Below, piece after piece: positions 37,670-45,604 of a DNA stretch of 64,000 bases; within the stretch, counting starts at the first letter, position 1; each line of letters begins with the position of its first letter. Below the pieces are notes generated by a model, which saw nothing but the letters and a program-made list of their open reading frames with translations, did no database searches and had not been told where the DNA came from. The DNA comes from Terriglobia bacterium. Its GTDB lineage: Bacteria > Acidobacteriota > Terriglobia > 20CM-2-55-15. The stretch lies in contig CBDAOY010000005.1 of the NCBI GenBank assembly GCA_965198225.1, forward strand, positions 847,065 to 911,064. The letters run 5' to 3'. The translations under genes and the position numbers were made by a program.

Positions 37670-38243
37670 AACCACCCCGTCTGCACCTTCGGTGCATCCA
37701 CCCCTCCTTATTCTAAGGAGGGGAGCCCGGGGTGGCGCGAAGCGCCGGGATGGTGTTGACCAAGAAAACCATCCCCGTCTGTCTGAGGCGTATCTAGACT
37801 AAGAAAACCATTCCCGTCTGCACCTGTCGCCCAGAACCCGGTGTAGGTGCGGTCTATGACCGCACAACTCGTGGCACCGCGTGCCGTCCACTCGGGGGTC
37901 CGTGCACCGTGCGGTCATAGACCGCACCTACACCGACCTACGTTTCCACTCTAATCGGGAAGTGACGAAACTTCGGAATCGGGTGTAGGTGTGCTTCGTG
38001 AGCGCAGGTTGCACTCCCCTCCTCAGATGAGGAGGGGTGGCGCGAAGCGCCGGGGTGGTGTTGACCAAGAAAACCATCCCGTCTGTCTGAGGCGTATCTA
38101 GTCCAAGAAAACCATCCCCGTCTGCACCTGTCGCCCAGAACCCGGTGTAGGTGCGGTCTATGACCGCACAACTCGTGGCACCGCGTGCTGTCCACTCGGG
38201 GGTCCGTGCACCGTGCGGTCATAGACCGCACCTACACCGACCT
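37670..38243. repeat. composite REP region with a ~210-bp direct duplication
   Basis: 37731-37939 is nearly identical to 38036-38243; contains GTAG REP doublets and CCCCTCCT..AGGAGGGG palindromes. Confidence 0.88.
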
Positions 38244-41204: not shown

Positions 41205-41471
41205 CGCTGCCTCCCGGTGTCTCAGCGCGTTGTGCGCTCACCGGGAAAGCGAGAACCGAATGGGAAAACTTGAACGTTCCAGGAAATTTCTTGTTGGTAC
41301 CGATCTCGCGTCTGCCGGCCAGAACGCCCGAGAACACGCACGTCGACGGTCAAAGCTCAGCGTTCAAAGGGTTTAAGGGTGTCTGTCAGGAGTTCTAGGG
41401 GTGCTATACTGGTCCCACATTCAAACCGCATTCACACCACGGGATTGGTCGAACAGGGCGAGGATCACACG

Positions 41472-41747
41472 ATGGCGGACAGGTGGCGCCAGGTCGAGGA
41501 ACTCTTTCACCGCGCGCTGGAGCGCGAGGAGCCGGATCGGTCTGCGTTTCTGGACGAGGCTTGCGCCGGCGACGAGGCCCTGCGCCGGGACGTCGAATCA
41601 CTGCTCGTTGAGGAGGCCGAGTCCGGCTTCATGGAAACACCGGCGATGGAAGGCGAGGCGCGGGAACTGGCCCAGGAGAACCGGCCGGGTCTGGAAGGAC
41701 GCAGAATCGGGACCTTCGAAATCCTCTCGCTGCTGGGCCGGGGCGGG
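41472..41747 (+). pseudogene. N-terminal fragment of a Ser/Thr protein kinase
   Basis: DRWRQVEELFHRALE..R.AFLDEAC.GD..LR..VESLL, then G.FEILSLLGRGG; breaks inside the P-loop. Confidence 0.85.
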
Positions 41748-42362
41748 CAAAGGACCTTTCCGAGCGTCCAGTTCGAGCGGTATGCGGACGATGCCATCGT
41801 CCATTGCAGGAGCGAACGGCAGGCGCGAGCAGTATTGGAGGCCATTCGGGGTCGGTTCGAGCAGTGCGGTTTGGAGCTTCATCCTGTGAAGACCCGTATC
41901 GTTTACTGCAAGGACGACGACCGGCCTGGGGACTACGAACACGTCAAGTTCGACTTCCTCGGGTACACCTTCCAACCTCGGCGGGCGAAGAATCGCTGTT
42001 GGAAATTCTTCGTGAGCTTCCTACCGGCGATCAGCGCCAAGGCCGCCAAGAAGATCCGGGCCACCATCCGCGAATGGCGGATGGCGTCCACCAGGAACAA
42101 CCAGCGTCTGGAGGACTTGGCACGGCTCATCAACCCGTCGGTACGTGGCTGGATGAACTACTACGGACGGTTCTACCGGTCGAAGTGTGTTCAGGTCCTT
42201 CGCCATCTCAACGAGGCCCTCGCGGCATGGGCGCGATGGAAATACAAGCGGTTTCGGCGACGTGAGCGTGCGTCGATGCACTGGCTGGGGCGCATCGCGC
42301 GACGGGACAGGCAGCTGTTTGTCCTGTGGCAACTCGGCATCGTACCCGAGGCTGGAGAGTAG
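41748..42362 (+). pseudogene. C-terminal fragment of a group II intron RT/maturase (class D-like)
   Basis: FERYADD, LELHPVKTRIVYCKD, FDFLGY, INP.VRGW.NYYG; fused in frame to the kinase fragment. Confidence 0.9.
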
Positions 42363-42436
42363 GAGCCGGATGAGGCGAGAGTTTCACGTCCGGTTCTGGG
42401 AGGGCCCGGGGGGGAAGTTCCCCCGGGCTACTCGAC
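42362..42436 (+). ncRNA. group II intron domains V-VI (3' end of intron 1)
   Basis: GAGCCGGATGAGGCGAGAGTTTCACGTCCGGTTC, then a DVI hairpin ending CTACTCGAC. Confidence 0.92.
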
Positions 42437-42891
42437 GTGTGCCACGAGCACTGACGGGCGCAAGTCGGGTCAGTGCGCAACTGTTTCACTGATGAGGGAG
42501 GGCCCCTCGGAGCCGGCGTGCAGGAGCCGGCTTCAAACCACCTTCGGTGGCTGTGGTTAAAAGCCATGGTCGTGAGCGCAGAAGGAAAAGGCCCGGGAAG
42601 AACCGGGTCAGGTGGCTGGCAAGAAGAGGACCGCAAGGGAATCACTGATGACGTGTCGAAAGCGTAGGGACGATGTCAAAACCGTGGGGAGTCATTACCG
42701 CGGGATCAGTTCAGACGAGAATCTGCTTACGGGCTGAGCGGCATCCGGCATAAAGGTGGCCTGAGCTTGCCGAGAGGCGGTGAAACGGAACGTGGGAACC
42801 TGAGATTCCGATGCTAACGGAGACGCCACAAGTGGAAGAACCACGAGGGCCAGAGTACGAAAGCGGAGTCTCAGGGGCGGAATGGCCCGTA
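42437..42891 (+). ncRNA. group II intron 5' part (DI, DII, start of DIII; class D-like)
   Basis: Starts GTGTG directly after the previous intron end; contains GGAACGTGGGAACC and ends GGGGCGGAATGGCCCGTA(GT) at the DIII base. Confidence 0.8.
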
Positions 42892-43799
42892 GTGCGTGCC
42901 TGGCAGCACGCGTTTCCGGCGGGTTAAAGTCCCGCTCGGCCCGAGGCCACGGGTCGATATCCAACAAGTGGGGGTAATGCCTCACTGGCCGGAGTGTAGG
43001 CAGGTATGGCAGATGCCTAAACGGGCACGAAGGCGAAAGCCGGATACGGCCAAGGCAAAGCTGGAGCCAGCTACGGAAACTTTGGAGGGCAGGGCGCCCA
43101 CCGCGAGGTGGGGTCTGAAGGGCATGAGGAGAACCACCGGGTCGTAATCGACGGGAGCCATCCCGAGGATGAACCGGTCGGCCAAAGATGGGGAATGGTC
43201 GAGCCCGCACTATTGGGGCGAAGGCGCATTGGTTCCACCCCATCGCACCAAGGTGTGTGCGGGCGACACGGTGGAGAAGAGACGCGAGTGACCCAGGGAG
43301 GCCTGGTATCGTCCGAGCGGAAGGTAAGGTCGAGATGATGTGGCACCCGCAGACGAAAGGGCGGGCAACCGAGAAGACAAACATCGACCTAGAGCCCTGC
43401 GCGGTAGGTGCGGATATAAGCGAGAGCGAAATTCCGGCCGACGCGGTGTCAGGAATCGGATCGGGGAATAGTACTCAGGAACGAGACGGCAAACATAAGG
43501 TCTCGGATCGTTGCTTCGAGCAGCGGCGCTGGCGGGTCCAAAAGGCCCGTTGGAGGGGGAAGTCCCCGTACTCAGTCGTGAATGTGCGAGCGATGGGAAA
43601 CGCGGAGATATCGTGGAATTGGATAGTTCCCTTAGCGAAAGACCCAAACGCGGTACGAACGAAGCCGCCACCTGCCGCCACACAGCGAATTCCGAACGAG
43701 GAGCAACTGAGGAAAGCGGCTTGCGGGAAAACCGCACGAGCCGTTTGATTGAGCGGACGGTGGAAGGGCGGAGATCGGCCCGACCACTTTCGACTCTAC
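42892..43799 (+). ncRNA. apparently complete ORF-less group II intron (~0.9 kb)
   Basis: 5' GTGCG (or GCGTG at 42894), own DIII (GGATCGGGGAATAGTACTC..GGGGGAAGTCCCCG), short DIV, DV GAAAGCGGCTTGCGGGAAAACCGCACGAGCCGTTTG (43712-43747), DVI ending CGACTCTAC. Confidence 0.78.
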
Positions 43800-45335
43800 A
43801 CTCCGAGGTCGGGAGAGCCGATCACATGGGGAAGCGGCCAGCAGAAGTGGACTCGTTCTTGGGAAACATGAGCTCCATGCAACGGGAGGATACGGTCCTC
43901 TATGCAACGAGAGGAACAACCAGTCATGGAAACGAAACTGGAACGAATAGCGGCGAAAGCTCGGAGTGAGCCAAAGCTCCGGTTCACGTCACTGGCGCAT
44001 CATGTCACCCGAGAGCGTGTGTGGAAGAACCTGTGTCAAGTGCCCCGCAACACGGCTCCCGGATGTGATGGTCAGAGGGTACCGGAGGCGAAGGAGGAAT
44101 TCGGAGTCTGGGTGGAGCCAATGCTCCAGTCTGTTCACCAGAAGGGATATCGCGCTCCGCCGATTCGGCGGGTGTATATCCCCAAGCCCGGCAAGCAGGA
44201 GAAACGTCCCCTGGGCGTGCCCTGTGTTCAAGATCGGGCCCTTCAGCGCAGCGTGGCCGAGGTATTGGTCGCCATCTACGAGCAGGACTTCTTGCCCTGT
44301 TCCTTTGGTGGCCGGCCTGGGCTGGGCGCCCACAATGCACTGGCAACCCTCCATGAGGTGATTTCCGGATGCAAGGTGAGTTGGGTGTTGGAGGCGGACT
44401 TGAAGAACTTTTTCGGGAGTTTAGACCATGGATGGCTACTCCGCTTTGTGGAGCATCGAGTCGGAGATCCGCGGATCATCAGTCTGATACGACGATGGTT
44501 AAAGGCGGGCGTTTTCGAAGACGGGGAATTGCATTCGAACGAAGAGGGAACCCCGCAAGGTGGGTCGATCAGCGTTCTGCTGAGCAATCTGTACCTGCAT
44601 TATGTGCTTGACCTGTGGTTTGACCGGATGGTCCGGCCACGCCTGAAGGGTGAAGCGTATCTGGTGCGGTACATCGACGACTTTGTCGTGTGTTTCCAAT
44701 ATCGGGACGATGCGCTTCGTTTCCAGAACGTTCTGCGCAAGCGACTGGGAAAGTTTGGACTGGTTCCGGAGCCGACCAAGACGAAGCTCGTCGAATTCGG
44801 CCGCTATGCCCAGCGCGATGTCGTCCGGCGCGGGAGAAAACGTCCAGAGACGATCTATTTTCTGGGCATGACCCTGTACTGTACGCGTAATCGCAAAGGC
44901 AATTTTAGAGTGGGACTGCGAACAGAGAAGTCTCGACTTCGACGCAGTCTGGCTCATCTACGCGGCGTGATGAGGCGAATGCGTCACTTGCCGGTCCGGG
45001 AGCAAGTGCACAATCTGAACCGAGTCTTGCGCGGGCACTACGCCTACTATGGCATTGCCGGGAACCTCCGGGCTCTGCAGCACGTCGCTCGGGCCGTGGA
45101 ACGTTACTGGCGCCAAATGCTCAGCAGTCGTAGTCGTGCAGGCTTCGTCCGGTGGGAAGTATTCAACCGGATTCAGCTGCACTTTCCGTTACAGCGTCCC
45201 AAGTTGGCTCTCCGCTATCGGGAGTTCCAGTCTCTCGCTGTGCTGTAAATCCAATTCTGAAGAGCGCAGTGCGGGAAATCCGCACGCTGCGTTCTGTGGG
45301 AGCCGGAGGCGGGCAACTGCCTCCGGCCACCCGGT
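43800..45335 (+). mobile_element. group II intron 3' part (rest of DIII, DIV with RT, DV, DVI)
   Basis: DIII remainder CTCCGAGGTCGGGAGAGCCGATCACATGGGGAAG; DV AGAGCGCAGTGCGGGAAATCCGCACGCTGCGTTCT; DVI ending CCACCCGGT. Confidence 0.85.
43926..45248 (+). CDS. ltrA: group II intron reverse transcriptase/maturase without an endonuclease domain
   Basis: RFTSLAHH, APG.DG, RRVYIPK..RPLG.P, ADLKNFF, GTPQGG, RYIDD, FLG, LRGHYAYYG. The ORF is intact. Confidence 0.95.
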   Translation: METKLERIAAKARSEPKLRFTSLAHHVTRERVWKNLCQVPRNTAPGCDGQRVPEAKEEFGVWVEPMLQSVHQKGYRAPPIRRVYIPKPGKQEKRPLGVPCVQDRALQRSVAEVLVAIYEQDFLPCSFGGRPGLGAHNALATLHEVISGCKVSWVLEADLKNFFGSLDHGWLLRFVEHRVGDPRIISLIRRWLKAGVFEDGELHSNEEGTPQGGSISVLLSNLYLHYVLDLWFDRMVRPRLKGEAYLVRYIDDFVVCFQYRDDALRFQNVLRKRLGKFGLVPEPTKTKLVEFGRYAQRDVVRRGRKRPETIYFLGMTLYCTRNRKGNFRVGLRTEKSRLRRSLAHLRGVMRRMRHLPVREQVHNLNRVLRGHYAYYGIAGNLRALQHVARAVERYWRQMLSSRSRAGFVRWEVFNRIQLHFPLQRPKLALRYREFQSLAVL

Positions 45336-45444
45336 GCGACTGGAAACGAAGCCACGGCGAGGAGTGAGGCACCGGAATCGGCGAAAGCCACCGGCAACAG
45401 CTACCCCCTTTGCCTACCGCCACCGCGCCAGTCGTCGACTCTAC
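45336..45444 (+). ncRNA. second, extended group II intron domain VI
   Basis: CGACTGG..CCAGTCG stem with a large insert, ending CGACTCTAC (bulged A plus AC end). Confidence 0.7.
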
Positions 45445-45604
45445 ACGAATGTGGGCGCTACCCTAAACTGGCGCAGAAGAGCTTCGGATTCTGGAACAAC
45501 GACGCGGATGCCGTCTACGATCAGTTATAGGGGGGGGGGAGGAGACGTCGTTCTCGTTTCCGTTTTACCGACCTTACCTCCACGAAGCGCCGGTCAGCAC
45601 TCTC

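Follow-up and report, generated by a model that had tools for sequence, protein, structure and literature searches.

In a 64,000-nucleotide (nt) stretch of DNA from a Terriglobia bacterium (GenBank assembly GCA_965198225.1, contig CBDAOY010000005.1, positions 847,065 to 911,064 of the forward strand; hereafter the window), a group II intron without an open reading frame (ORF) interrupts domain III of other intron sequence. The insert, termed el, occupies positions 42894-43799 of the + strand (906 nt, GCGUG...CUAC), and its identity as an ORF-less group II intron was confirmed. We consider it likely that el is a non-autonomous, ORF-less derivative of a sibling intron that encodes a reverse transcriptase (RT), termed P, and that it has multiplied by retrohoming into the J2/3-domain III (J2/3-DIII) region of other group II introns. 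At the window locus the left flank of el belongs to one host intron, X, and the right flank to another, Y. Intron domains are written DI to DVI, and a slash within a sequence marks the insertion point.

Boundaries and ribozyme structure

The ends of el were placed by comparison with uninterrupted sites. Seven uninterrupted paralogs of a host intron, Z3, read ...CATAGT/AGCCC where the occupied copy has its insert, with 100% identity over 152 nt upstream; an empty copy of host Y in the relative genome G021 reads GATAGT/ACTC; and the unoccupied target inside el itself reads AATAGT/ACTC. The boundaries are set at 42894 and 43799 because only an insert running from GCGTG to CTAC fits all three sites. 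Since the empty sites place the junction at TAGT/A, the non-canonical GCGUG start is real. The first-pass annotation had begun the intron at 42892, where a canonical-looking GUGCG can be read, and had raised a start at 42894 as the alternative. Excision of 42892-43799 would leave sites without the GT that is present in every empty site, so the earlier start falls and the alternative is borne out by the empty Z3, Y and self sites; the GTGCG at 42892 arises by chance where exon GT meets intron GCG. The features of el are as follows.

42894-43799, +: el, ORF-less group II intron (boundaries from empty sites; BLAST copies; minimum free energy (MFE) z-score -4.4)
43008-43045, +: crossover interval in el (left, X/Z2-type variants; right, Y-resident variants)
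43209-43214, +: exon-binding site 1 (EBS1), ACUAUU in a hairpin loop; its pairing partner is the 5' exon end, (R)RUAGU (final 5-6 nt)
43457-43473, +: el's own DIII target, comprising CGGA (43457-43460), eight variable bases (N8), TAGT (43469-43472) and A (43473); unoccupied in the window copy
43689-43696, +: RT-ORF deletion scar in DIV, 8 nt as against ~1250 nt in P (comparison with the copy at C6:343788-345943)
43714-43746, +: DV (MFE fold with AGC triad, two-base AC bulge and GAAA-type loop; covariation)
43750-43799, +: DVI (MFE fold with bulged branch-site A at 43793; intron 3' end UAC)

The z-score of the fold was calculated against 20 shuffled sequences. By fold and covariation together, el has a DV as expected of a group II intron, for which the norm is a 34-nt hairpin that carries the AGC catalytic triad and a bulge of 2 nt. 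Its DVI likewise has the bulged A, expected 7-8 nt before the 3' terminus, and a terminal AY, A43793 lying seven bases from the end of el in the MFE fold. In an alignment of 17 family members over their final 95 nt, compensatory changes were observed at 10 of the 28 predicted DV/DVI pairs; DV pair 22-42 covaries as UA, CG and AU, and the branch-site A is unpaired and invariant in all 17 relatives. The earlier description of a ~0.9-kb ORF-less group II intron at this locus, with DV, DVI and a tiny DIV and with no RT, therefore stands.

Copies and target sites in the window genome

The window genome (G000) comprises 6.4 Mb in 9 contigs. BLAST of 42892-43799 against it returned 36 places (34 high-scoring segment pairs in a second run), which we interpret as ~16 ORF-less copies that are whole or almost so, together with 5 fragments and 3 longer copies. 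The junctions of these copies are nearly uniform. TAGT stands directly before GCGTG in 18/20 5' junctions, with TAAT in one, and all 21 3' junctions read ...CTCTAC followed by A. Farther upstream, C-R-G-[A/C] occupies positions -16 to -13 and is followed by eight variable bases in 19 of the 20 5' flanks.

An intron DIII surrounds 18 of the 20 5' junctions. Ten types can be distinguished among the twenty 5' flanks, and in seven of them the flank is the 5' half of another group II intron; every one of these seven host types has an Rfam D1D4 match just upstream, and the matches belong to three D1D4 families:

group-II-D1D4-2: hosts X and Z6
group-II-D1D4-3: hosts Z1 and Z3
group-II-D1D4-6: hosts Y, Z2 and Z5

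The eighth host type is el itself, a full copy being found between positions 581 and 582 of another copy four times in G000 and once in the relative genome G020; 14 further self sites in the window genome are unoccupied. Nesting elsewhere in the genome runs up to four deep, as el within el within Y within a further intron, V. These arrangements have the marks of a twintron: inner and outer intron share the same orientation, the ends of the insert are exact, the host D1D4 lies upstream and the host RT and DV lie downstream, and empty host paralogs are present. The proposal that el interrupts the DIII target motif of its host is confirmed by the TAGT/A junction. The broader prediction that all copies would lie at GTAGT/A in DIII held for 18 of the 20 junctions in G000, for G020, for a fragment in a cyanobacterial metagenome-assembled genome (MAG) and for 25 of the 29 metagenome loci tested that end in TAGT; it failed for a copy within a MASE9-domain gene and for one aberrant junction.

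A genome-wide search with the motif C[AG]G[AC]-N8-TAGT followed by A located 60 unoccupied and 19 occupied sites. Insertions were present at 18/39 intron sites and at 1/40 non-intron sites (Fisher p = 3e-6, to be read with the caution that copies are not independent events).

Several further loci touch on this census. At the aberrant junction (C5:3833-4942), the exact 5' end of el meets a segment matching, at 99% identity, part of a methyltransferase-like gene located elsewhere (C8:20138), and the 3' side of the copy runs into positions 582-786 of another el copy. Three relatives of host Z2 (C6:296603, C8:79172 and C5:569943; 86-88% identical) carry TACT in place of TAGT and have no insert, which may mark them as resistant variants. 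An intron at C4:~105750, upstream of the RT at C4:105911-107179, has a DIII that reads CGGA-N7-TAGTA, with a spacing of 7 and not 8, and is likewise unoccupied. A 1412-bp insertion sequence with several genome copies (C5:815631-817043) adjoins a Y copy from which a deletion has removed all of el and some of the 5' half.

Pairing with the target

The EBS1 loop, ACUAUU in el, reads ACUAUG in P and in one subtype. Among relatives with other targets the loop tracks the exon end (loop/exon: GAGAUG/CAUCUC, ACCAUG/CAUGGU, GCUUCG/CGAAGC, ACUUCC/GGAAGU, CCAAAG/CUUUGG), and a column scan matched el positions 316-321 with -1 to -6 of the exon. A perfect 5-nt complement to EBS1 was present for 37 of 69 extractable loops, and most of the others pair via G-U. 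Covariation across subfamilies supports the pairing between EBS1 and its intron-binding partner (IBS1) in el. Of the two exon-binding sites that the first-pass annotation had suggested locating by folding, EBS1 could be assigned and EBS2 did not emerge from the column scan.

Upstream of the TAGT, the eight variable target bases pair with the 3' flank when host DIII is folded, and in the fold the target falls within a loop or an internal loop. We take the eight bases to be the 5' strand of the DIII stem and the conserved C-R-G-A to be the end of J2/3. The distal C-R-G-A is nearly invariant and so offers no covariation signal to the column scan. In subfamilies whose targets do not end in TAGT, a C-N-G-A-like motif was found at -16 to -13 in 31/78 cases and at -15 to -12 in 41/78, among the matches listed. 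Because the distal motif also stands at apparently non-intron targets, including two of three sites in a related MAG (C-N-G-A at -16 to -13), it is probably a requirement of the family's ribonucleoprotein (RNP) and not just a conserved host feature. Either intron cores satisfy this short target sequence by chance, or the lineage evolved to match it.

An ORF-bearing sibling and the origin of the ORF-less form

At three places in the genome, BLAST alignments showed ~1250 extra nt between el positions 797 and 800. Two of these places are copies of the sibling intron P (C6:343788-345943 and C5:501714-503867; 2.15 kb), whose ribozyme part is ~97% identical to el and which contain an intact ORF (C6:343899-345143 in the first) for a 415-aa RT/maturase with RVT_1 and GIIM domains (Pfam; TIGR04416, 390 bits against a cut-off of 300). 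The third ORF-bearing copy is degenerate and adjoins the 3' half of intron V. The intron-encoded RT/maturase that characterizes mobile group II introns is thus absent from el and intact in two sibling copies. A profile search found no endonuclease domain in the 415-aa P RT, and the closest solved structures are endonuclease-less RTs of class IIC: 6ar1 (the GsI-IIC RT, E 7e-65) and 7uim (E 3e-63).

Relative to P, the deletion in el spans the region from the ORF start to just beyond the stop codon. The first-pass annotation had asked whether DIV still holds RT remnants of a recent deletion; comparison with P at C6:343788-345943 revealed none, the 8-nt scar being all that is left. A 25-nt stretch across the scar has 17 exact copies in the genome, and full el copies are 97.8-100% identical to one another (n=13). 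Because the scar is identical in 17 copies, the comparison argues that a single, precise deletion of the RT ORF from P gave rise to el, and that the ORF-less form then spread. Here, as in the TeI3 introns considered below, ORF-less copies have a common deletion break-point and an autonomous sibling in the same genome; they occur in nine different target contexts. The RT for el would be supplied in trans, and we infer that P is a likelier donor than the host RT at 43926-45248, which the earlier annotation had singled out.

The window locus and recombination within el

Around el, the intron cluster of the window consists of the following parts, with Rfam matches to DV-DVI at 42361-42436 and 45260-45335 and to group-II-D1D4-2 at 42494-42613.

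41379-42436, +: 3' part of upstream intron A (RT/maturase ORF 41379-42362, with GIIM and partial RVT_1 by Pfam; DV-DVI 42361-42436, RF00029, 59.2 bits)
42437-42893, +: 5' half of host X (GUGUG start, DI, DII and 5' DIII strand; D1D4-2 42494-42613, 106.6 bits)
42878-42893, +: X target motif, comprising CGGA (42878-42881), N8 (42882-42889) and TAGT (42890-42893)
43800-45335, +: 3' half of host Y (3' DIII strand; DIV RT/maturase ORF 43926-45248; DV-DVI 45260-45335)
45336-45444, +: 3' tail of intron V (part of DVI), 109 nt, identical by BLAST (100%) to uninterrupted V tails

The Y RT has RVT_1 and GIIM domains (Pfam) and scores 317 bits with TIGR04416; it is 100% identical to six other Y RTs, and the Y DV-DVI matches RF00029 at 47.1 bits. 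Complete Y copies carry a D1D4-6 match. The flanks of the window copy therefore do derive from different intron types, as the first-pass annotation had proposed, with a D1D4-2 intron on the left and Y (D1D4-6) on the right. Its further remark that the basal stem of these flanks pairs imperfectly was not confirmed by folding: the chimeric stem (-20.0 kcal/mol) and the native Y-Y stem (-19.6 kcal/mol) are predicted to form about equally well.

Variants within el itself change type between the two flanks. The window el first differs from a G020 copy with X on both sides at 43045, and its last difference from copies with Y on both sides is at 43008, save for a private variant at 43770-43772. In G020 the same X 5' half continues after el into a different, native X 3' half. 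On these comparisons we read the window copy as a recombinant of an X 5' half and a Y 3' half, with the crossover within el. The idea that recombination between copies joins 5' ribozymes and RTs across intron types is thereby upheld, from the X 5' flank, the Y 3' flank and the internal switch: through homologous recombination in el, the 5' ribozyme half of one type came to be followed by the half of another type that carries the RT. Elsewhere in the genome, arrays composed of positions 1-581 plus a full copy, or of a full copy plus positions 582-908, match deletion by recombination between nested copies.

Other observations concern the surroundings. The last base of intron A (DVI, ...CUACUCGAC) adjoins the first base of intron X (GUGUG) at 42436/42437 with no exon between them, and this A-X tandem occurs at three loci in two genomes (the window, G000 C4:~150281 and G020 L044). 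Y, with a 5' end of UUGCG and a 3' end of ...CCCGGU, is inserted in the DVI of V, a second intron-into-intron homing system; uninterrupted V reads ...GATGAGCG directly followed by GCGACTGG... at C5:743295-743470 and C6:5935-6135. A run of eleven G lies just 3' of the intron cluster (45531-45541). Farther away in the window, a ~60-75 bp repeat at 38013-38089 has ~19 further genome copies (84-98% identical), and a full-length Rfam match to 5_ureB_sRNA (2643-2941, - strand, 85.2 bits) represents a family unexpected in this genome.

Relatives in other genomes and in metagenomes

Forty related genomes were searched for el. G020, which belongs to the same family and another genus, contains el at 99% identity in X, in Y and in el itself; over el and the hosts X and Y, G020 and G000 agree at 99-100% identity. 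No el copy was found in the same-genus genomes G001-G003, where G002 gave only two 42-nt matches. This distribution suggests that the nested introns were recently transferred horizontally. The cyanobacterial MAG contains a 5' el fragment at the matching site of an X-like host, and a related MAG contains three copies of the ORF-bearing sibling, 92-95% identical and all at GTAGT/A sites. An exact 18-mer scan of genomes returned 91 stretches; by BLAST, 5 were true relatives and the rest were chance matches in GC-rich genomes.

The family was sampled in metagenomes with a degenerate 40-position pattern of the 5' end, which gave at least 122 matches in at least 120 stretches; the counts that follow hold among the matches listed. 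GCGUG begins 67/122 members and GUGUG 55/122, and we take the U2-to-C start of el to be a variant characteristic of the lineage. A TAGT end was present in 40 of the 118 matches with enough flank, representing 34 distinct flanks. Of the TAGT loci tested with Rfam, 25/29 have a same-strand D1D4 match 90-282 nt upstream, at distances specific to each of four families (D1D4-6, 131-143 nt; D1D4-3, 90-96; D1D4-2, 263-282; D1D4-4, 245-273). In several contigs a second, distant RT comes no more than a few hundred bases after the inner one, the order expected because the insertion lies just upstream of the host DIV. Short ORF-less inner copies of 765-787 nt were also present.

Other subfamilies (L142-L261) have different targets with matching EBS1 loops, ending in ...GAGTACGCGAAGC (conserved and coding-looking), ...GTCCGACCCAAACATCTC, ...CAGATAGAACCATGGT and ...GGAAGT; most of them keep a C-N-G-A-like motif ~13-16 nt upstream.

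Proposed cycle of el

According to the model, el would be transcribed inside its host intron and would leave as a lariat, aided by the P maturase in trans, so that host DIII is restored. The EBS1 loop (ACUAUU or ACUAUG) would then pair with RUAGU at a new site with C-R-G-A at -16 to -13 and, directly after the insertion point, an A that is always present. There el would reverse-splice into DNA, not RNA, that codes for a new DIII, with priming probably provided by replication, because the P RT lacks an endonuclease domain. As the target lies in the conserved ribozyme core, introns of several structural types would be open to invasion, and so would the DIII of el itself. Homologous recombination between copies would delete parts of arrays and join the halves of unrelated hosts.

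El is covered by contigs from four runs, three of them metatranscriptomes. One contig from an RNA library joins the Y 5' flank (...GCTGATAGT) straight to 43800, and another ends exactly at 42893. These contigs, which carry no expression level, strand or ends, fit excision at the predicted junctions and give weak support to it.

Weighing the explanations

A number of observations weigh against retrohoming of an ORF-less intron into DIII. Direct evidence of splicing or mobility is absent from these sequence data, and the RNA-library contigs are equally explained by DNA or RNA from a strain whose site is empty, as it is in G021. As a ribozyme el is unorthodox. Its GCGUG departs from the GUGYG 5' end of group II introns, and its DV-DVI gave no RF00029 match at E<=1 in Rfam, for which reason both domains were called by folding and family covariation; RF00029 reached 33.4 bits on one sibling copy, under the 40-bit cut-off. 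The D1D4-3 match within el is also weak (24.5 bits, E 0.075, cut-off 32 bits), with 32.4 bits for L033, a relative 77% identical to el. No EBS2 partner was found when every intron column was compared with exon positions -1 to -22 (apparent pairing of G with C and U was noise). Some insertions lie outside introns: one el copy is antisense in the MASE9-domain gene, at a site that still fits the motif, and in the related MAG one sibling copy lies in a response-regulator frame and one in a second long frame, the third having no other RT nearby. C5:3833, where an exact el 5' end meets unrelated sequence, lies near a contig end. Finally, copy number may overstate the number of insertions, two el loci being an inverted segmental duplication and all six Y copies that retain DIII being occupied with identical flanks; part of the copy number may therefore stem from spread or duplication of whole composites.

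The insertions in genes bear on the possibility that the intron recognises only a short motif (~CRGA-N8-RUAGU/A), anywhere, and that harmless sites in multi-copy DIII persist while insertions in genes are purged. The antisense MASE9 copy in G000 and the sibling copies in open reading frames at GTAGT/A speak for such a safe haven, as does the retention of the distal C-N-G-A by subfamilies with non-TAGT targets, which makes that motif a family trait and not one specific to DIII. Set against this are the 39 full-motif non-intron sites of G000 that stand empty beside the single occupied one, and the recurrence of DIII insertion, seen in host introns of four D1D4 families and in no fewer than 34 different metagenome flanks, which suggests something beyond passive filtering. 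We regard survivorship as the unlikelier account, though a serious one; it is compatible with specialisation, and preference and survivorship are not separable with these data. The same gene insertions are left unexplained if el instead hitch-hikes at the RNA level, reverse-splicing into the DIII loop of host RNA and being copied into DNA when the host retrohomes with its own RT. The uniformly occupied Y copies (6/6, flanks 100% identical) would fit this route, the seven identical Y RTs imply that Y was recently active while carrying el, and the target does lie in a loop of folded host DIII. However, the host ribozyme would need to be active despite 906 nt in its DIII, and the fixed spacing of the distal C-R-G-A at non-intron sites as well fits recognition of a DNA target; we judge this route improbable.

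It is highly improbable that el is a dead relic, in which a few old insertions were amplified by duplication of hosts or segments and by gene conversion, the ORF-less form itself being immobile. The inverted segmental duplication, the many truncated or rearranged copies and the frequent recombination between copies are what such a history would leave, but the identical scar is found in eight intron contexts (seven other hosts and el) and one gene, filled and empty Z3 paralogs differ solely by the exact insert, self-nested copies have exact junctions, and copies 99% identical occur in the genome of another genus. Nor are collapsed or mis-joined repeats a credible source of the pattern. El is a high-copy repeat, and odd junctions such as C5:3833 near a contig end invite suspicion, but the same junctions recur on five contigs of the assembly, in G020 and in independent metagenome contigs, and contigs of the four public runs cover both el and its junctions; an assembly artefact has almost no probability on this evidence. 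Retrohoming of el, as a derivative of P, into J2/3-DIII thus remains the reading that we favour.

Relation to known systems

Intron-in-intron homing and the mobilisation of ORF-less introns in trans are already known; the DIII homing site appears to be the new aspect. Searches of the main text of openly accessible papers turned up no account of DIII serving as a homing site. Among solved structures the endonuclease-less P RT is closest to class C (IIC) RTs, and a short EBS1 with an upstream element and no clear EBS2 is a further likeness to that class. The upstream element of el, in contrast, is a C-R-G-A at fixed distance and not a terminator hairpin, no hairpin requirement having been seen. 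IIC ribozymes are much smaller than the ~900 nt of el without an ORF.

The nearest precedent for the ORF-less form is in Thermosynechococcus elongatus, where ORF-less TeI3 (F3) introns home between the start codons of the TeI4 (F1) RT ORF and are mobilised in trans by the sibling's RT (PMC2882425). TeI3 introns are likewise ORF-less derivatives of an ORF-bearing sibling with a common deletion (PMC2882425). The site of el differs in being the J2/3-DIII core, in three D1D4 families in the genome and four in metagenomes as well as in el itself, and mobility has been shown experimentally for TeI3, whereas that of el is deduced from sequence. Nested introns of Methanosarcina acetivorans, as outlined in a review (PMC4424553), have homing sites in related intron ORFs and lose copies by homologous recombination. 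Repeated site-specific homing of intron into intron, multi-level arrays, ORF-less and ORF-bearing forms and recombinational deletion are common to both systems; the site of el lies in a ribozyme domain and crosses intron types, whereas in M. acetivorans it lies in intron ORFs (PMC4424553).

The twintron Tery_4732 of Trichodesmium erythraeum, for which sequential splicing has been demonstrated (PMC4649490), is also a bacterial group II intron within a ribozyme domain of another. It differs in being a single locus whose inner intron is ORF-bearing and lies in DI, and is not presented there as a multi-copy homing lineage (PMC4649490). In Porphyridium purpureum mat1f (PMC4476101) and the Euglena plastid twintrons (PMC4424553), one inner intron occurs in at least two outer introns and the inner intron is spliced first; these systems are organellar, the Porphyridium site is in DIV, and no conserved core motif shared across classes is described as their homing site. 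Two pipelines for cataloguing bacterial group II introns state that they drop nested introns (PMC4028801, PMC8919778), so a lineage of this kind may have escaped notice.

Implications

A homing site in the core region opens introns of different classes to the parasite and makes splicing of the host dependent on prior removal of the parasite. The system offers testable material in a defined 13-nt target rule with a distal motif at fixed spacing, a naturally occurring U2-to-C change in the 5' splice-site consensus, and documented chimeras of unrelated introns formed by recombination inside a parasite. Whether el stands for a widespread lineage of dedicated parasites of group II introns, which home to J2/3-DIII and cross at least four structural host types, is a tentative proposal to which we give slightly less than an even chance. 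If it is true, members of the lineage, including RT-less forms, would hold their hosts hostage, the folding of each host waiting on splicing of the inner intron, and recombination between inner copies, by swapping 5' halves and RT-bearing 3' halves, would be a natural engine of modular intron evolution.

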